Source: an uncultured delta proteobacterium
GTDB lineage: Bacteria; Desulfobacterota; Binatia; UBA9968
Assembly (NCBI GenBank): GCA_963847445.1
Contig: CAWJZV010000024.1
Location: 160,001 to 224,000 of the forward strand
Direction of reading: 5' to 3'
DNA: 64,000 bases
Below the pieces are notes generated by a model. The model ran no database searches and was not told the origin of the DNA. It saw nothing but the letters and a program-made list of their open reading frames with translations. The position numbers and the translations under genes are program-made. The number at the start of each line of letters is the position of its first letter. Positions within the stretch are counted from its first letter, which is position 1. This document shows positions 1,154 through 9,138 of the stretch, one piece after another.

Positions 1154-1588
1154 CTAATTCTTCTTCCCCGGCTCGGCCTGATAGCCCTGTTCCTTCCATT
1201 GATTAACCGGGCAAAACGTCGTGCTCTGGAAACCCATCTCTTCGGCTAGCTTCGCAGCCTGCGAGCTTTGACGTCCACTGCCTCAGGTGAAGATGATGTA
1301 CGTTTCCTTGGCCAGTTTCTTTAGATGGCCTTCGAGTATTTCGAGTGGAATATTGATCGCCCCGGGAATGGTTTCTTTCTGGAATTGTTCCGGGCCGCGC
1401 ACGTCGATGATCAATATTTTGCCGGCATCGAGTTCTTTCTTGAGCTCGTCGGCCAGTTTTGACTTGGCGCCCACCGCCCAGTTGGTCTTGGGATCCACCG
1501 GATAGCGCGGTTGCGCCTGGGCCGCGAACGAAAATGTTGTCCACAGGATGACCGCAAGCAAGCCAACAACAGCTACTTGTGGCTTCAT
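1154..1588 (-). CDS. Exported rhodanese-like protein with in-frame UGA (probable selenocysteine) at the active site
   Basis: The ORF track stops at TGA 1283-1285, but the frame continues 42 more sense codons to TAG at 1154: ..IIDVRGPEQF..TIPGAINIPL..YIIFT-UGA-GSGRQSSQAAKLAEEMGF..W. This matches the rhodanese loop (YCxxGxRS). N-terminal signal peptide; RBS AGGAG. Confidence 0.85.
1248..1267 (-). promoter_or_regulatory. Putative bacterial SECIS hairpin (AGCU-CGCA-GGC-UGCG-A-AGCU)
   Basis: The hairpin begins 15 nt after the in-frame UGA; its G-containing 3-nt loop lies 23 nt downstream. Confidence 0.65.
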
Positions 1589-1623
1589 ATCCGCTCCTAT
1601 TTGCGTCCTGCGAACTTATTTGT

Positions 1624-2146
1624 TCAACCCCGATCCGACAATTCGAACGCCAGCGTCGCGTAACGCATGAAAACACCGCCGCGCGGTTCCGCCAGCGGAC
1701 CGTTGGCGACCAGGCATGCGATCACATGCTTGGCGCCGGGCTGCGCTTTGGCGCTCACCTCGACGCGCTGCGACGCGTTGATGCCGACGATGGTTCCGGC
1801 CGGCCGCTCGATCTTGCCGTCGATCCAAATCTCGCCGTAGTTATCGACGTTGGTTTCGAAGAATACCCGGTAATCGCGCAACGCCACGCCGTTCAGTTGC
1901 TCGGGCAGCATCGACGGCGATGCGATACCAAGCAAACGTGAAACCCTTGGAGATACTGCTGCGAATATTGGTGCAAACTTCCCAGCCTGAATCATCGAAG
2001 TCCGCCAGCCGCGGTGGCGCGGCCAATAGCTGCGCCGTAAGCCCTTCATTCGGCTGGCCCGGCACCAGCCCGGGGCCAATGCGCCACTGGCCTTTGACCT
2101 TTCGACAATCCTCCGCACTATTCAAATCCAAAGCTATCCTCGGCAT
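1624..2146 (-). CDS. Hypothetical protein, glycosidase-like jelly-roll/sugar-binding fold (one frameshift near 1915)
   Basis: ORF 1841..2146 (..FDDSGWE..FAWYR) joins 1624..2118 (..NVDNYGEIWIDG..); RBS GGAGG. Confidence 0.6.
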
Positions 2147-2194
2147 GCTTACCTCCTAAAAATGAATCGTTACAGCAAATCAAAATTCTCTTTT

Positions 2195-2486
2195 CACCAC
2201 GAAGTTCCTAGCGCGGCAAGCCGCAACCGAAACTCGGAATATCTCTCGCAAAGACGCAAAGGCCGCAAAGGCCGGAAAATAACGGTGAATAAATGCTTCA
2301 AGATAATTCATCTCTCCCTCCGAACTTGGCGAGCTTTGCGTCTTTGCGAGAGTCAATCCCATGTTCCGACCGGCACCGGAAAATTTGCGCAGACGGAGAC
2401 AACTATTCAACATAGTAGTACGAAGGACACGAAGGTTTCGGAAAATTGACACTCCGAACTTCGTGCTCTTCGTGTCCTTCGTGGTG
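2195..2486. repeat. caccacgaag-type palindrome carrying a ~212-bp inserted cassette (2208-2419)
   Basis: The cassette is homologous to 8830-9050 and 39604-39821; the uninterrupted host palindrome is at 51584-51666. Confidence 0.85.
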
Positions 2487-2528
2487 AATACTATCCTTGC
2501 GTCTTTGCTCGCGGCATCGCCGCGCGCG

Positions 2529-3881
2529 TTAACCTCGGAGAATCTCCGTCAGCGATCTGACATTATCGACTTTTTCCAAACCCTCGATCAGCGCCAATGC
2601 GCGCTCAGCCGCGTCGGCGCTCAAGGTTTCGCGCGCGCACTCGGTAAACTTGCCTCTCAGCTCCGCTTCCGTCATGGGAAATTCCGGACTGCCTTTGGAG
2701 TGCTGTGCCTCGCGAATATAGGTCTGACCGCTTTTCGTGCGCAACGTCACCCGGCAGGGGCGGCCGCTCGGGTCGGTCTTTTTTAGATCATTGCCAAGAT
2801 GCATCTGCACTCTTTCCGCCAGTTTCAACACATTCGGTTCGCGCACGGCGGCGTCGGTGAATGCATGCAACGAAACCTTGCCGTCGATCAGCGCCCGCGC
2901 CACCAGATACGGCATGCAAAACTTGCCCTGGATGCTGGTTTGCGGCACTTTGAAAACGATGCGCTCGAAGGTGTGTTTGGCGACGTCGACATCGACGCTC
3001 TCGACCATCTCCGCAGTCAAGCCGTGTTTGGCTCTGAATTCCAATATCGAATCGATCGCCTGATGCGTAAGCCCGCCGCAAGGATAAGGCTTGATGCGAA
3101 TGCCGTCGCTGAGCAGCGCATAGGACCGGCCCAACTCTTCTATGGGCTTCTCGTCGATCGGCGCACCGGAATGAAGCACTTTGTAGAAGCCAAACCCCGA
3201 TTCGATCGCTTTACCGTTGGCGGTGAAGCCGGATTGCGCCAGCTTGGCCGCGAGCACGCCGTTGCGCGCGCCGAGGCCGACATGCAACGGCTTGGTCATG
3301 GTGCCAAAGTTGGCAACCACACCGCCGGCCATCGATGCCGACATGCCGAGCGCCATCTCAACTTGGCCGGCGTTGAGCCCGAGCAGCTTGCCGCATGCCG
3401 CCGCGGCGCCAAAGGAACCCAGCGTGCTCGGCGCGTGCCAACCGTCATGCTCGCTGTCGCGCAACGAGTGCACGAGCTTTGCCGTGACCTCATAGCCAAC
3501 CGCATAGGCTTCGATGATTTGCCGGCCGCTGGCGCCGAGCGCTTCTCCCAGCGCAAAGGTGGCGGGAATGATCGGCGCCGTCGGCTGGCCCATCAGGGTG
3601 AAGCTGTGATCGAAATCCATCGCGTGCGCCGCCGTGCCGTTCGCCAGCGCCGCGTTGAGCGCGGAAGATTTGAATCCTTGACCGATGACCGTGGTTTCTT
3701 CCTTGGCCTGTTCCTGGCGCGCGACCTCGGCGCAAATTTTCGCGTCCTCTTCCTTGCTGCCGGCAAGCGCCACACCGAGGCAATCGCGCACAGCGATCTT
3801 AGCGGTGGCAATCGCCGCCGCCGGTAGATTTTCATATTTCGCAGTCGCGACGAACTGCGCGATCTTTGCGGTTACGTCCAT
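2529..3881 (-). CDS. MmgE/PrpD family protein
   Basis: Motifs AALANGTAAHAMDFD, IKPYPCG..TH and KGSPEFPMT..KF. Confidence 0.9.
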   Translation of the reverse strand: MDVTAKIAQFVATAKYENLPAAAIATAKIAVRDCLGVALAGSKEEDAKICAEVARQEQAKEETTVIGQGFKSSALNAALANGTAAHAMDFDHSFTLMGQPTAPIIPATFALGEALGASGRQIIEAYAVGYEVTAKLVHSLRDSEHDGWHAPSTLGSFGAAAACGKLLGLNAGQVEMALGMSASMAGGVVANFGTMTKPLHVGLGARNGVLAAKLAQSGFTANGKAIESGFGFYKVLHSGAPIDEKPIEELGRSYALLSDGIRIKPYPCGGLTHQAIDSILEFRAKHGLTAEMVESVDVDVAKHTFERIVFKVPQTSIQGKFCMPYLVARALIDGKVSLHAFTDAAVREPNVLKLAERVQMHLGNDLKKTDPSGRPCRVTLRTKSGQTYIREAQHSKGSPEFPMTEAELRGKFTECARETLSADAAERALALIEGLEKVDNVRSLTEILRG

Positions 3882-3966
3882 ATATATCTCCTCGCTGCTA
3901 TGGTAATTTCAGATTGCAAATATACCAATTCCGAATCGGCCAACGATGTTAATAACCGCATCAGAA

Positions 3967-4112
3967 GGGCAGCCACAAGCGGTTGCCCCTACAATTCCGA
4001 TTCCCTTTTGCGTTCTTTGCGGCCAATTCTCCGATTCCGAATCTTCTTTCTATGTGATCTATGTGCCCTTTGTGGTTAAAGCTCTTTTCCTCGTTGATTG
4101 CCGCTGTGCGGT
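3967..4112. repeat. Composite repeat: GTAG-type REP hairpin (gggcagccacaagcggttgcccctac) followed by tttgcg and ctatgtg ~9-nt repeats
   Basis: The same module order recurs at 5220, 5349, 21386 and 56090. Confidence 0.75.
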
Positions 4113-4113
4113 A

Positions 4114-5169
4114 TTACCCCCCAAGTATCTTCTTCGCCTGCTCGACCACTTCCGGCGGCTGATTCAAAACTTCTTTGACCAACGCCTCCAAGTCTTCCCC
4201 CGCTGCATACTCCACCTCCATGCGCGCGCGTTTCGCTTCGGCCAACAGCTCGGAGTCCTTCAAGACGTTGCGAAAACTCTCGCGCAGCATTTTGACTCGA
4301 TCCGGAGGCGTTCCTGGCGTGACCAGCACCGGCCGGCCGAACTCGCCGCCGGATAACAGCGCCTGGGCGACGCGCCGCTTGGTGCTGGCAACTTTGAACT
4401 CATCCAAGATTTCGTAAATCGTCGGCGCCTCGGCGGCGCGCGGGTCGCGCTTGCGGCCGGATTGGAGCACATGGAAATCGAAACCTTTCTTATGCCAGGA
4501 ATTGAAAGGTTCCCGGCCAAAATGCGACGCCAGCGTGTGCGCCCGGCAAGCGATCTCGCCTTTTTCCACCGCCAAGTCGGCGTCGCTGCCACCTTGATAG
4601 CCTGACACCGAATTGATCTTCGCGCCCACGGTCAGCTCCAAGATCCGCGCGATGATGTAATCCGAGCTGGTGGTGCCGGAGCCGCCGCAACTGGGCGGCT
4701 GCTTAGCCCTGACGATATCGCCGACGGTTTTAAGTCCGGTATCGGCGCGCATGTAAAACATGATCGAATCCTGCGACGCCGAACCGAGCCAGTGAAACTT
4801 CCTGAGATCGAACTGCGCTTCCTTGCGGCCGATGAGCTGTTCGATGTAAATGCTGTTGTTCGGCAAGAGCACATGCAGGCCGTCCGGCTTGGCCACGCCG
4901 TAAACGTAGTTGGTCGCGCTGATCGAGCCGGCGCCGGGCATGTTGTGGACGATTACGTTGGGATTGCCCGGGATATACTTGCCCCAATAGCGGGCGATGA
5001 GCCGAGCCCAAGAATCGTAGAAATTTGCCGTCGCGGAGCCAACCACGAATCTGAGCGTCTTGCCTTTGTAAAATGACTCGCTCTGCGCTTCGGCAATCGC
5101 CAGCGGGAACAAGATCGCCGCAGCCAGCAACAAACAAATCTGAATGAGAGACAGTTTCGCTTTGGTCAT
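4114..5169 (-). CDS. Tripartite tricarboxylate transporter substrate-binding protein (Bug/TctC-like)
   Basis: Signal peptide, FYKGKTLRFVVG, IPGNPNVIVHNMPGAGS, AKPDGL. Confidence 0.9.
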   Translation of the reverse strand: MTKAKLSLIQICLLLAAAILFPLAIAEAQSESFYKGKTLRFVVGSATANFYDSWARLIARYWGKYIPGNPNVIVHNMPGAGSISATNYVYGVAKPDGLHVLLPNNSIYIEQLIGRKEAQFDLRKFHWLGSASQDSIMFYMRADTGLKTVGDIVRAKQPPSCGGSGTTSSDYIIARILELTVGAKINSVSGYQGGSDADLAVEKGEIACRAHTLASHFGREPFNSWHKKGFDFHVLQSGRKRDPRAAEAPTIYEILDEFKVASTKRRVAQALLSGGEFGRPVLVTPGTPPDRVKMLRESFRNVLKDSELLAEAKRARMEVEYAAGEDLEALVKEVLNQPPEVVEQAKKILGG

Positions 5170-5186
5170 GGTGACATTCACTCCTG

Positions 5187-5462
5187 TGGTCCTTGGGCAC
5201 TCGCCGCTCCGCCACCCCAGGGCGTATGCCATACGCCCCTACAATCGGATTTCTTCCTTGGAATTTTTTGCGCTTTTTGCGCCCTTTGCGGTTAATTATC
5301 CCATGCCGAACTTCGTGTCCTTCGTACTACTATCCGTGATAGCCAAGAGGGCGGGTTTCAAACCCGCCCCTACGACTCCCGATATTTTTTGCGCTTTTTG
5401 CGTTCTTTGCGGCCATTCTTCTTTTCGGTTGCGGCGCAGCCGCGTTGTGATCTTCGTGGTGA
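5187..5462. repeat. Composite repeat array: two GTAG-REP hairpins (5220-5242, 5349-5373), tttgcg repeats, and a cttcgtg arm interrupted by a 123-bp cassette (5326-5448)
   Basis: Direct reading; the first ~100 bp are homologous to the reverse complement of 56090-56185. Confidence 0.8.
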
Positions 5463-5604
5463 GATCAACGCTTCTCGTCCTGCCACGACTTGATCATTGT
5501 CTCGAAAGCGCGAGCCTAGTCGATGTCGAATCAATCTGTCAACTCGACTGCGTCGACGCGCAAGCTTTTTCATGCTACCGATGAGCGGACATCCGCCACC
5601 CATC

Positions 5605-7242
5605 ATGGAAAAAGCATCCGCTCAACAATCCCGCGCCAGCGTCGCGCGCAACGCCGGCATCGTCAGCCTCGCGGTGATGGCGAGCCGCGTGTTGGGTCTC
5701 GCGCGCGATCAGATCTTCGCCGCGCTGTTCGGCGCCGGCTTGCAATACGACGCCTTTCTCACCGCCTTTCGCGTGCCCAACCTGCTGCGCGACCTGCTCG
5801 CCGAAGGGGCGCTGTCATCGGCGTTCGTCACCACCTTCACGCAGACGCTGCAACAAAAAGGCAAAGACGAAGCGATTCGGCTGTCCAACCGCGTCGCCAC
5901 GCTGATCGTCGCGTGCATCACGGCGGTTTCCATTATCGCTTGGATTTATACGCCGGAGATTGTCCGACTGCTCGCGCCGGGATTCTACGCTGTGCCGGGG
6001 AAAGCCGAGCTCACCATTGAATTGACGCGGGTCATGATGCCGTTTCTCTTGCTGATCGCCCTGGCGGCGCAAGCGATGGGCATGCTCAACGCGTTCAATA
6101 TTTACGGCATGCCGGCGCTGGCTTCGGCGTTTTTCAATCTTGGCTCGATCATCGGCGGCTTGCTACTGGGTTATCTCATCGGACCGGCCATCGGCTTGAG
6201 CCCCATCGCCGGCATGGCTTATGGCACCGTGATCGGCGGCTTTTTGCAGTTCGCCGTGCAATGGCCGAGCCTGCGCCGTTGCGGTATCGGCTACCGGGCC
6301 GATTGGAATGTGAACGACTCGGGCGTGCGGCAGATTCTTCGGCTCATGGGACCGGCGATCATCGGCGCCGCCGCCGTGCAGATCAATGTTTTCGTCAACA
6401 CCAGTTTCGCTTCGGCGATCGTCGATCCGGCCACCGGCGCGGTCGCCAACGGACCGGTGTCCTGGCTCAACTTCGCTTTTCGCTTCATGCAGTTTCCCAT
6501 CGGCGTGTTCGGCGTCGCCATCGCCACCGCCACCTTGCCGACGCTGTCGCGCAGCACGGCGAATCCCGACTACGGCGAGTTTCGCCAAACCCTGGCGCAC
6601 TCGCTGGCGCTGGTGTTTCTCCTATGCATCCCGTCGGCGGTCGGCCTGGCGGTGCTGGCGCAACCGATCGTCGCCCTGGTCTTCGAGCATGGCAAGTTCA
6701 CCGCCTTCGACACCGTTCAGACGGCCAACGCCTTGGCAGCCTACGCCGTCGGTCTGGCCGGCTACGGCGCCATCAAAGTGTTGTCACCGGCGTTCTACGC
6801 GCTCAACGACGCGCGCACGCCGATGCTGATCAGCCTGGGATCGATCGCAGTGAATTATGTCATGAACTCCTTGTTGGTCGGCCCCTTCGGCCACGTCGGT
6901 TTGGCATTTTCCACCTCGGCCGTGGCGTTGGTGAATTTTCTCTTGCTGGCGTTGTTAATGCGCCGCCGCTTGGGCCACTTGGCCGGCCGCAAGCTCGCTG
7001 TCACCGCCGTGAAAATCGCCCTCGCTTCAGCAGCGCTCGCCGTCGTCGCATGGATCGCCAATCAAAGCGCCGGCGCCTTGCCGTTGCATGGTTTGGCACT
7101 GGAGTTCAGCCGCGTCATCATAGCGATCGTCCTGGCCGCCGCGACCTTTTACGGCGTCTGCCGACTGCTGCGAGTGGACGAGTTGCAGGAAGCCATCGAC
7201 GCCATCGGTGGCAAATTAATCCGCCGACTGCGGCGCAAATAG
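5605..7242 (+). CDS. murJ: Lipid II flippase MurJ (MviN)
   Basis: SRVLGLARD, AFRVPNLLRDLLAEGALSSAFV, FMQFPIGVFGVAIAT, FYALNDARTP. Confidence 0.95.
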   Translation: MEKASAQQSRASVARNAGIVSLAVMASRVLGLARDQIFAALFGAGLQYDAFLTAFRVPNLLRDLLAEGALSSAFVTTFTQTLQQKGKDEAIRLSNRVATLIVACITAVSIIAWIYTPEIVRLLAPGFYAVPGKAELTIELTRVMMPFLLLIALAAQAMGMLNAFNIYGMPALASAFFNLGSIIGGLLLGYLIGPAIGLSPIAGMAYGTVIGGFLQFAVQWPSLRRCGIGYRADWNVNDSGVRQILRLMGPAIIGAAAVQINVFVNTSFASAIVDPATGAVANGPVSWLNFAFRFMQFPIGVFGVAIATATLPTLSRSTANPDYGEFRQTLAHSLALVFLLCIPSAVGLAVLAQPIVALVFEHGKFTAFDTVQTANALAAYAVGLAGYGAIKVLSPAFYALNDARTPMLISLGSIAVNYVMNSLLVGPFGHVGLAFSTSAVALVNFLLLALLMRRRLGHLAGRKLAVTAVKIALASAALAVVAWIANQSAGALPLHGLALEFSRVIIAIVLAAATFYGVCRLLRVDELQEAIDAIGGKLIRRLRRK

Positions 7243-7369
7243 ATTCGCATCCTTTAATAACTCCTGACTAACCGCGGCAATGCGGTTCGAACACGAGCAC
7301 GTCGTCAAAGCCGACCATTGACATCGTCGGCACCGCCATTTAACAATCCGCGCGAACAAAGGAGAGCTT

Positions 7370-7858
7370 ATGCCTAAAGTCACATCCCTCGGACATCTGG
7401 GTTTTCATGTGCGCGATATGGAACGCTCGGTGGCGTTCTACCGCGACATTCTCGGTTTAACCGTCAGCGACCGCAGCCCGCGCGGCGCCGTGTTCATGAC
7501 CAGCCAGGATCGCAGCGTCGAGCACCACGAGCTCTACCTGGCGCCGGGGCGCGACGACGACGGCAAGGTCAACGTCTTGCAGCAGATTTCCTTCCGCTGT
7601 CCGACGTTGAAGGATGTCAAGGATTTCTATCAACTATTCGTCGACAAGCAGGTGCCGATCAACCGCTGCGTCAGTCATGGCAACACCGTCAGCATCTACG
7701 CCAGCGACCCCGACGGCAACTCGGTGGAAGTCTACTGGCCGAGCGGCGTCGACGTGCCGCAACCCTTCGGCAAACCGATGGACTTGACCAAGAGCGAAGT
7801 GGAAATCCGCGAACAGCTCAATCAGATCCTTAGAGAATGGCAGAGCCAGGCGTCATAA
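7370..7858 (+). CDS. VOC/glyoxalase family protein
   Basis: LGHLGFHVRDMERSVAFYRDILGL..SIYASDPDGNSVEVY; RBS AGGAG. Confidence 0.9.
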   Translation: MPKVTSLGHLGFHVRDMERSVAFYRDILGLTVSDRSPRGAVFMTSQDRSVEHHELYLAPGRDDDGKVNVLQQISFRCPTLKDVKDFYQLFVDKQVPINRCVSHGNTVSIYASDPDGNSVEVYWPSGVDVPQPFGKPMDLTKSEVEIREQLNQILREWQSQAS

Positions 7859-7915
7859 AAACCGTTTTCAATAATCATTGACCATCGGCGAGCCCAGGAG
7901 GCATTGGAGTTGTCT

Positions 7916-8485
7916 ATGCCACGTATTCCCTATGTCGACCCGGATAAAGTTACCGACCCAGAGATCAAAGGCTATCTGGAGCGCGCTCGCCGTGAAGGCA
8001 CGCCGCGCCCTGAAAGCCAGGCCGTGCGCGCCAACGTCCCCGAGGTCATCCGCGCGTTCTCGCAGGCGTGGGAACTCACGTTCCGCACCGGCGTCGTCGA
8101 CCACGCGCTCAAAGAGCTTTGCCGGGTTTACGTTTCGAAATCGATTGACTGTCAATATTGAGGCGTGCAGCGCTCCGTCCAGGCTGGACGGCAAGGACTT
8201 ATTGAAGCGAAGTACGATGAGTTGCTCAACTTTGCCGACTCGGACAAATTCACCGAGCGAGAAAAAGTCGCGCTAACCTACACCAGCGCGATCGCCTGGA
8301 ACTCAGACATCGCCGACGACGCGCTCTGGGCAAAATTGCACCGACATTTTTCGATCCCAGAGTTGGTCGAGCTCGGTTTTTTCATCGGCCTCACCCTCGG
8401 CCAACAGCGCTGGATCAAAACCCTCGGCATCGACCATGGCGCCGTGCTCGGCGATACCACAGCCGGTCTCGCGCCAACGAAATAA
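7916..8485 (+). CDS. AhpD/carboxymuconolactone decarboxylase-like protein with CxxU motif (in-frame UGA at 8159-8161, probable selenocysteine)
   Basis: ORFs 7904..8161 and 8165..8485 are in the same frame and interrupted only by one TGA: LKELCRVYVSKSIDCQY-UGA-GVQRS..FTEREKVALTY..LHRHFSIPELVEL. The TGA is the second Cys of the AhpD-like CxxC. Confidence 0.88.
8175..8191 (+). promoter_or_regulatory. Putative bacterial SECIS hairpin (CCGUCCA-GGC-UGGACGG)
   Basis: Perfect 7-bp stem starting 13 nt after the in-frame UGA; G-containing loop 20 nt downstream. Confidence 0.75.
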
Positions 8486-8774: not shown

Positions 8775-9116
8775 GAAGGAGGACACGAAGGCGTCGGATA
8801 ACTAATATTTCGAACTTCGTGATCTTCGTACTACTATACTTGAAAGTTTGCGCGGCTCGCGCAAATTTTCGGTCATTGGGGATACTCGTACTGGGGAATT
8901 GACTCTCGCAAAGACGCAAACCTCGCCAAGTTCGGAAGGAAGATATGAATTAGCTTGAAGAATTTAGTCACCGTTATTTTTCGACCTTTGCGACCTTTTG
9001 CGTCTTTGCGAGAGATATTCCGAGTTTCGATTGCGGCTGTGCCGCGCTAGGCCCTTCGTGGTGAACACTTTATTTCTTATTTGGTTGCGGCTTCGCCACA
9101 CTGGGCTCGTCGTGGC
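8775..9116. repeat. cacgaag/cttcgtg palindrome carrying a 221-bp cassette (8830-9050) plus an extra cassette-end copy
   Basis: Homology to 2208-2419 and 39604-39821. Confidence 0.85.
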
Positions 9117-9138
9117 GCACAACACAATCTGTTTCTGA

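Follow-up and report, generated by a model that had tools for sequence, protein, structure and literature searches.

The stretch of DNA analysed here (the window) consists of 64,000 nucleotides from contig CAWJZV010000024.1 of assembly GCA_963847445.1 (positions 160,001 to 224,000), a metagenome-assembled genome (MAG) of an uncultured delta proteobacterium placed in the Binatia (UBA9968). Close to its start lie two genes with an in-frame UGA, one rhodanese-like and one AhpD/CMD-like, and in each the UGA is followed by a hairpin resembling a selenocysteine (Sec) insertion sequence (SECIS). A reading of the window alone (the original prediction) had pointed out that both UGAs are followed by GGC and that the same hairpin tip, CAGGCUG, begins 21 nt past the UGA in one gene and 18 nt past it in the other. 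It took this tip to be the motif that SelB recognizes in this lineage. The sequences and distances on which it rested are all correct. The features are as follows, in window coordinates.

1154..1588, minus strand: rhodanese-like selenoprotein gene (predicted), from the listing of open reading frames (ORFs), 144 codons including the UGA, plus the stop
1285-1283, minus strand: predicted Sec codon of the rhodanese-like gene, an in-frame UGA followed by GGC; the whole-genome scan reports one in-frame TGA within the Rhodanese match
1267-1248, minus strand: rhodanese SECIS hairpin, the 20-mer AGCUCGCAGGCUGCGAAGCU, folded as AGCU-CGCA-GGC-UGCG-A-AGCU
7916..8485, plus strand: AhpD/CMD-like selenoprotein gene (predicted), from the ORF listing, 189 codons including the UGA, plus the stop
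8159-8161, plus strand: predicted Sec codon of the AhpD-like gene, an in-frame UGA followed by GGC; the ortholog search reports one in-frame TGA
8175-8191, plus strand: AhpD SECIS hairpin, CCGUCCAGGCUGGACGG, folded as CCGUCCA-GGC-UGGACGG, a perfect 7-bp stem without a bulge

The first gene encodes a product whose U is covered by a match to the Pfam Rhodanese model (PF00581, E = 1.6e-17). The U occupies the position of the catalytic Cys within the local motif IIFT-U-GSGRQS, and the U-G-S-G has the UxxG form. The N-terminus carries a hydrophobic, signal-peptide-like segment, and the product is probably an exported sulfurtransferase in which Sec replaces the catalytic Cys. The hairpin contains 8 bp (CGCA/UGCG and AGCU/AGCU) with a single bulged A on the 3' side, and its GGC loop (1257-1259) lies 23 nt past the UGA. 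Relatives were found in 23 of 123 same-order genomes, a count that includes the genome of the window itself and one unpublished genome (G052) that was given no weight; a metagenome scan contributed 25 further loci. Protein identity among these relatives ranges from 99% down to 53%. The UGA is kept in 44 ortholog rows (37 distinct sequences), and the identical 20-mer follows at +18 in 42 of them and at +19 in the remaining two, which are one place listed twice. Across 34 distinct 60-mers none of the 20 hairpin columns varies, as against 12 of 15 columns upstream and 14 of 22 downstream. The third codon positions show the same pattern, with 0 of 6 variable in the hairpin compared with 5 of 5 and 8 of 8 in the flanks. 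The first G of the GGC loop is constant in all orthologs. Three orthologs (L084, L222 and L223) have Cys (TGC) at the place of the UGA and encode the same peptide, S-S-Q-A-A-(K-L), with different codons, so that the stem is destroyed. Cys also aligns opposite the U in a paralog. A further ortholog (L071, on contig C68 of genome G040) has CGA (Arg) in place of the TGA and retains the intact 20-mer; either the substitution is recent or the sequence is in error here.

The second gene matches the Pfam CMD model (PF02627) barely above the cut-off (E = 4.7e-5; 23.7 bits against a threshold of 23), and its product carries the CxxU redox motif C-Q-Y-U. The GGC loop, at 8182-8184, is 20 nt past the UGA. 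Relatives were found in 62 of the 123 same-order genomes, including the genome of the window and the unpublished G074, from which no locus was used. Both the UGA and the hairpin are invariant in all 30 same-order loci fetched, while synonymous sites in the flanks vary, and the UGA is present in all 80 loci from a search of genome contigs. By their tips, the 82 distinct 60-mers divide into 67 with CAGGCUG, 11 with CAGGCCG, three with CAGGGUG and one with CAGGGCG. The alignment used for covariation consists of 78 distinct 48-mers, including three distant orthologs. In it 97.6% of the cells of the 7-bp stem pair, as compared with 16–42% in slid controls. Changes on both sides are seen at five of the seven pairs (for example, C-G to U-A in nine sequences and U-A to C-G in five), and the covariation score was reached by none of 500 shuffles. 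The closing A-U pair is the least constrained, being unpaired (A.C) in 12 of the 78 sequences. The first G of the loop (column 24) is constant in 78 of 78, and the third base is C or G. All eight stop-free homologs fetched, which form a clade of Cys paralogs, read CEYC-GNQRS and have no hairpin. One distant ortholog (L233) carries CA-GGC-UG on a different stem, and its sister (L234) carries CG-GUC-CG on the same lower stem as L233.

Because the synonymous sites of the rhodanese hairpin are invariant, the AhpD stem shows compensatory changes and the stems are gone in the Cys homologs, both hairpins are judged to be under selection at the RNA level. On these comparisons they are real SECIS elements, for which SelB binding and Sec insertion are predicted from the conservation, the covariation and the loss in Cys homologs. 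Their form agrees with the bacterial SECIS (bSECIS) consensus of the bSECISearch model of Zhang and Gladyshev, as far as it is restated in PMC13188914: an apical loop of 3–9 nt on an upper stem of 4–16 bp, a G as the first or second base of the loop, usually with G or U next to it on the 3' side, 16–37 nt between the UGA and the loop, and a minimum free energy of at most -7.5 kcal/mol. Both loops are of 3 nt and read GGC, the stems are of 4+4 bp with the bulged A (rhodanese) and 7 bp (AhpD), and the spacings are 23 and 20 nt. The rhodanese hairpin as drawn has -7.7 kcal/mol, a borderline value just inside the cut-off, and the AhpD hairpin, at -10.3 kcal/mol (z = -0.62), is what its 29-nt stretch folds into at minimum free energy. 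Taken in isolation, the stretches have folding energies and z-scores that shuffled sequences share; the comparative data alone set the window hairpins apart. Rfam at gathering thresholds gave no match within the window, to a bacterial SECIS family or to any other. By the model established for E. coli and Moorella, the downstream hairpin would remain folded as the UGA enters the ribosomal A site, and SelB would bind the exposed G and the next base of the small apical loop through its C-terminal winged-helix domain. SelB-GTP would then bring Sec-tRNA(Sec) to the UGA, competing there with release factor 2.

The UGAs could instead be true stops or lesions of pseudogenes, with hairpins that are due to chance or serve another role. 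The assembly does hold in-frame TGAs and frameshifts unrelated to Sec. However, the UGAs stand at a catalytic Cys position and, with the frame open beyond them, are kept in 44 rows of rhodanese and 110 loci of AhpD orthologs, and the hairpins are invariant at synonymous sites, which makes this explanation practically negligible.

The genome of the window (7.19 Mb in 48 contigs, 57% G+C, 91.8% complete, 6.9% contaminated) encodes the whole set that defines the Sec-decoding trait: tRNA-Sec, SelA, SelB and SelD, the selB frame being interrupted. There is one tRNA-Sec, with anticodon UCA. The genes selA, selB and selD lie in a row on contig C14, with selD beginning right after selB, and selD carries a UGA of its own (SAG-U-AAKLGPGDL). 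The C-terminal winged helices of SelB match the Moorella thermoacetica SelB fragments 1LVA (E = 3e-24) and 1WSU (E = 2e-15), and the region of the last helix is closely similar. The original prediction had also raised the alternative of a selenium-free, SECIS-dependent system that reads UGA as Cys or another residue. Nothing in its favour was found; with the full Sec machinery present, and selD itself bearing a UGA, this alternative is exceedingly improbable.

The same reading of the window had suggested a large selenoproteome overlooked when UGA is read as an ordinary stop, and this is borne out. There are 45 UGA positions in the genome; without five near-identical second copies they represent 40 distinct Sec genes (37 supported by family, three probable), a number that is a lower bound. 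Two screens were used. The first, based on codon usage, retained frames in which a TGA is flanked on either side by open, coding sequence, and yielded 275 candidates. Sixty of these, picked by peptide context, strong folding or odd paralog alignments, were compared with Pfam with the TGA translated as U, and in 27 a Pfam domain spans or abuts the U, as follows.

GrdA, 1; GrdB, 5; OsmC, 3; CMD, 4; UGSC, 3
Rhodanese, 1; AhpC-TSA/Redoxin, 8; GST, 1; SelD, 1

Two more of the 60 are probable Sec genes: a family-less UPFC protein, and an adenylate cyclase that reads C-T-L-U, with Cys in its paralogs. The other 31 were rejected as gene junctions, frameshifted genes (M48 peptidase, carbamoyl-phosphate synthase) or TGAs opposite residues other than Cys. 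A comparison with the genome's own ORFs places Cys opposite the UGA in eight of the 275 candidates. The codon screen had passed over about one third of the Sec genes that Pfam scans then recovered, including four peroxiredoxin (Prx) and four CMD genes. The second screen scanned the whole genome with Pfam models, blind to hairpins, and reported stops inside matches.

CMD: 19 matches, 8 with one TGA, the window AhpD gene not among them
Rhodanese: 17 matches, 3 with one TGA, one of them rejected
AhpC-TSA: 27 matches, 12 with one TGA
OsmC: 5 matches, 3 with one TGA
Glutaredoxin: 9 matches, 3 with one TGA
ArsC: 1 match, with a TGA directly abutting it
Molybdopterin: 15 matches, the best of which (C48:73638-74894) has three in-frame TGAs

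The rejected rhodanese match (C11:36682-36852) is frameshifted and has its TGA away from the active site. The Thioredoxin model gave seven matches in the whole genome, none with a TGA. The Molybdopterin scan established no Sec-type formate dehydrogenase in the genome; the match with three TGAs may be such an enzyme with sequence errors, or a pseudogene. Three more copies were found by tblastn with the Sec proteins. AhpC-TSA matches occur in all 31 genomes of the genus, and 92 of the 150 best matches listed have one in-frame TGA (a hand count that includes rows from G074); judged from these sequences, UGA-bearing peroxiredoxin genes are a genus-wide trait.

Hairpins downstream of the Sec codons were scored for loops of 3–6 nt closed by at least five contiguous pairs and starting 16–28 nt after the U of the UGA. 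The hairpin-blind subset below comprises the 26 distinct genes that came from the Pfam scans, and the window AhpD gene lies outside it.

Distinct Sec genes (n = 40): G[G/U]N triloop in 28 (70%), GGC in 10 (25%), (N)G[G/U]N(1-3) loop in 35 (87.5%), CAGGCUG in 2
Hairpin-blind subset (n = 26): G[G/U]N triloop in 18, GGC in 5, (N)G[G/U]N(1-3) loop in 23, CAGGCUG in 1
Control, TGA stops of long ORFs (n = 1025): G[G/U]N triloop 1.9%, GGC 0.5%, consensus-type loop 5.4%, CAGGCUG 0
Control, Cys codons inside long ORFs (n = 6932): G[G/U]N triloop 1.2%, GGC 0.3%, consensus-type loop 6.0%, CAGGCUG 0

Based on these counts, the lineage uses the general published bSECIS consensus, mainly in the form of G[G/U]N triloops. 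This consensus (as represented in PMC13188914) fits both window hairpins and 35 of the 40 Sec genes, with triloops predominating here (28 of 40) and GGC as the commonest loop (10 of 40). Five genes fall outside it: grdA, which has a long stem and a 9-nt loop, two Prx paralogs, one UGSC gene and one Prx/thioredoxin gene with 4 bp only. Tips found on other Sec genes are listed here.

GC-GGC-GC: grdB
GA-GUU-UC: AhpD and glutaredoxin (Grx) genes
GA-GUG-UC: UGSC
CG-GUA-CG: OsmC
CG-GUC-CG: selD, at +16
UC-GGC-GA: two Prx-type genes
AA-GGA-UU: GST
Tetraloops: AGUU, AGUG, GGAC

The proposal that CA-GGC-UG is a lineage-specific SelB recognition motif draws on its presence in two unrelated genes, on the invariance of the tip and the whole hairpin in all same-order orthologs, and on its retention on a different stem in L233. 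However, the tip is found in two of the 40 distinct Sec genes, namely the window pair. The other Sec genes of the genome lack CAGGCUG: selD, with a GUC triloop at +16, and grdA, grdB, Prx, OsmC, UGSC, GST and Grx genes all use other tips. Neither is the tip confined to the lineage, for AhpD orthologs in MAGs with other titles, among them Rokubacteria, Actinomycetota, Chloroflexota and Burkholderiales, carry CA-GGC-UG or a near variant. The C-terminal domain of SelB, on inspection, is a conventional winged helix with no sign of unusual RNA binding. A lineage-specific motif is accordingly judged very improbable.

The frequency of the tip is likewise unexceptional. The window contains eight copies of CAGGCTG where 6.97 are expected, and 34 of 100 shuffles reach eight. 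When the loop of each gene was kept and the two closing base pairs were permuted among the 27 triloop SECIS (5000 trials), the rhodanese and AhpD tips came out identical in 12–13% of trials (P ~0.12). Over the same 27 SECIS five identical 7-mer tips are observed across families, against ~6 expected; another unrelated pair, AhpD and Grx genes, has GAGUUUC in common. Both window tips are coded as Gln-Ala (CAG GCU) in the same frame, a caution already expressed in the original prediction. Since the Cys ortholog L223 of the rhodanese-like gene still holds CAGGCUG without any stem, part of the identity stems from protein coding. The identical tip is a coincidence and not a lineage signature, because workable tips are few (G[G/U]N loops with strong closing pairs) and both are built on an in-frame CAG GCU.

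A variant of this idea is that CA-GG(U)C-UG is a generally favoured class of high-efficiency tips, convergent with E. coli fdhF, with the identity being partly due to chance. The fdhF tip (sequence from NC_000913), whose loop begins at +21, is CA-GGUC-UG; in L233 the tip persists on an altered stem; and GGC is the commonest loop of the genome. Set against this, the closing pair of the ten GGC loops is C-G in six and A-U in four (including the two of the window), and the A-U pair is lost in 12 of 78 AhpD orthologs. This explanation is improbable, if less so than a lineage-specific motif, and a little room is left for some preference for the tip beyond chance.

The UGA-GGC context does not hold as a shared RNA signature either. 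The third base of the Gly codon varies among orthologs, which have GGC, GGG, GGU, GGA and even AGC or AGU after the UGA, and Cys homologs also have Gly there. In the 40 Sec genes GGC follows the UGA in 10 and Gly in 11, compared with 7.7% and 9.4% after Cys codons genome-wide. This excess comes from families with a conserved Gly past the active residue (grdB, UGSC, rhodanese and AhpD), and the Gly or GGC after the UGA is, as far as these alignments go, a feature of the protein and not an RNA signal.

Taken together, the window very probably contains two ordinary selenoprotein genes with standard bSECIS elements and a coincidentally identical tip, in a lineage that applies the general consensus to at least 40 genes. 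The observation behind the original prediction was correct, and its interpretation is partly supported. Five points weigh against the reading of ordinary selenoprotein genes. First, Sec insertion at both UGAs is a prediction from comparison of sequences. Second, the rhodanese hairpin is not the minimum free energy structure of its 33-nt stretch, for which a competing fold has -10.9 kcal/mol. That fold draws on the next two codons, CUA GCC, and is not conserved, since these vary freely among orthologs (CUAGCU, CUAGCA, CUGGCC, CUCGCC). Third, the selB frame is broken in this assembly (L001, C14:193150-196287), at about positions 260-1000 of that locus: EF-Tu domain 2 is read in frame 2 (290-919), but the winged helices are read in frame 1 (1000-1677). 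Because other genes show similar frameshifts, we read this break as a probable assembly error. Fourth, the distant AhpD ortholog L233 has CA-GGC-UG again, on another stem, and E. coli fdhF comes near to it. Fifth, the set of Sec genes is not exhaustive and was partly picked by eye, 60 of the 275 screen candidates having been sent to Pfam.

Like the fdhF element, the window hairpins lie inside an ORF, share the same two closing pairs (C-G and A-U) and have GG as the first two bases of a loop that lies comparably far downstream (+23 and +26 in the window genes, +21 in E. coli). The features noted for the E. coli element in the relevant part of PMC8659212 are U17, G23 and U24, of which the bulged U17 is required. 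In contrast, the window loops are GGC where E. coli has GGUC, no U follows the second G, and no U is bulged on the 5' side; the only bulge is an A on the 3' arm of the rhodanese hairpin, the AhpD stem being free of bulges. The window hairpins are therefore not of the fdhF type, which has a 5' bulged U and G-U in a 4-nt loop.

Both gene families, as well as this type of SECIS, have already been described; rhodanese-like UxxG and AhpD-like/CMD-like CxxU selenoproteins appear in the sections of PMC13188914 and PMC1088965 (Sargasso Sea) that deal with such families. The first window gene resembles the former in its PF00581 domain, with Sec at the catalytic Cys and U-x-x-G, and the second resembles the latter in its PF02627 domain (23.7 against 23), CxxU motif and Cys-containing homologs and paralogs. 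Published selenoproteomes, in the figures quoted in PMC12013277, comprise 39 members in Syntrophobacter fumaroxidans and 43–46 in Desulfosediminicola, and in those quoted in PMC13188914 at least 57 in the Olavius Delta-1 symbiont and 63 in a Methylomirabilota MAG. With at least 40 genes, the present genome is in the top range and, like other selenoprotein-rich bacteria, has many thiol-redox selenoproteins (Prx, AhpD, OsmC, GrdA/B, UGSC, GST and Grx). It differs from the published cases in its lineage, its relatives being titled Candidatus Binatia or uncultured delta proteobacterium. No literature linking Binatia or Binatota with selenoproteins was found in the full texts searched, a limited collection. 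A broader proposal, which is possible but rather doubtful, is that the genus has one of the largest bacterial selenoproteomes, apparently unreported, and that its SelB may have narrowed the consensus to G[G/U]N triloops ~20–26 nt past the UGA (70% of its SECIS), with CA-GGC-UG as a favoured tip convergent with fdhF.

The result is mostly corrective, in that the seven-base identity carries no special information; its modest addition is the size of the selenoproteome. At least 40 genes of this genome, and many more in relatives, will be cut short by standard annotation, so that the redox proteome is under-read. The signal available to selenoprotein finders is strong and simple: 70% of the Sec genes, compared with 1–2% of controls, have a G[G/U]N triloop between +16 and +28. 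The set of 40 SECIS could be used to train or test such finders for a poorly known soil lineage.

The AhpD-like gene has a wide distribution. Its nearest records are in MAGs titled Candidatus Binatia, uncultured delta proteobacterium or Thermodesulfobacteriota (98–85% identity), and orthologs 74–84% identical occur in MAGs titled Rokubacteria, ANGP1, Actinomycetota, Chloroflexota, Burkholderiales and Armatimonadota, labels that may be unreliable. The 80 loci from genome contigs (L120-L199) are 74–98% identical across MAGs labelled as at least eight phyla or classes, with the UGA in every one. This pattern suggests that the gene is distributed widely or has been transferred horizontally along with its SECIS, or that the MAGs are mis-binned. 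Across phyla, its SECIS stem also makes a good natural series in which to follow covariation.

Several further observations concern the Sec genes and the assembly. Six selenoprotein genes lie within ~5.7 kb at C16:39106-44766, in the order OsmC, AhpD, AhpD, Prx, Prx, AhpD (L004, L024, L006, L027, L005 and a Prx gene with its UGA at C16:42864-42866), each with its own UGA and hairpin, and constitute a dense redox selenoprotein cluster. At C27:94608-95339 (L016) the open frame of a Sec peroxiredoxin with T-P-T-U runs on into a glutaredoxin-like domain that has C-G-F-C; this may be a fusion or a neighbouring gene in frame. The five second copies are of grdB (C32/C42 and C17/C25), CMD (C14/C34 and C29/C8) and GST (C22/C36), and suggest redundancy or strain mixture in the MAG, given its contamination of 6.9%. 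In-frame TGAs at seven loci (L046, L047, L048, L049, L062, L040 and L041, on contigs C16, C28, C30, C45, C18, C3 and C2) were set aside as not coding for Sec. The TGAs in the otherwise intact domains, namely a TctC C-terminus, Usp, an amidohydrolase, MFS and an EF-G paralog, face non-Cys residues in paralogs (in one case 38 of 48 paralogs have E or Q), and the M48 peptidase and the carbamoyl-phosphate synthase show frameshift-like breaks. These cases are pseudogenes or assembly errors.

Finally, the first 10 kb of the window also contain short, related intergenic repeats, at 2243-2490, 3994-4075, 5254-5462 and 8780-9118. Their units include the types TTTGCG(N)CTTTGCGG and CGAACTTCGTG...CTTCGT, and they look like repetitive extragenic palindromic (REP) elements or miniature inverted-repeat transposable elements (MITEs).

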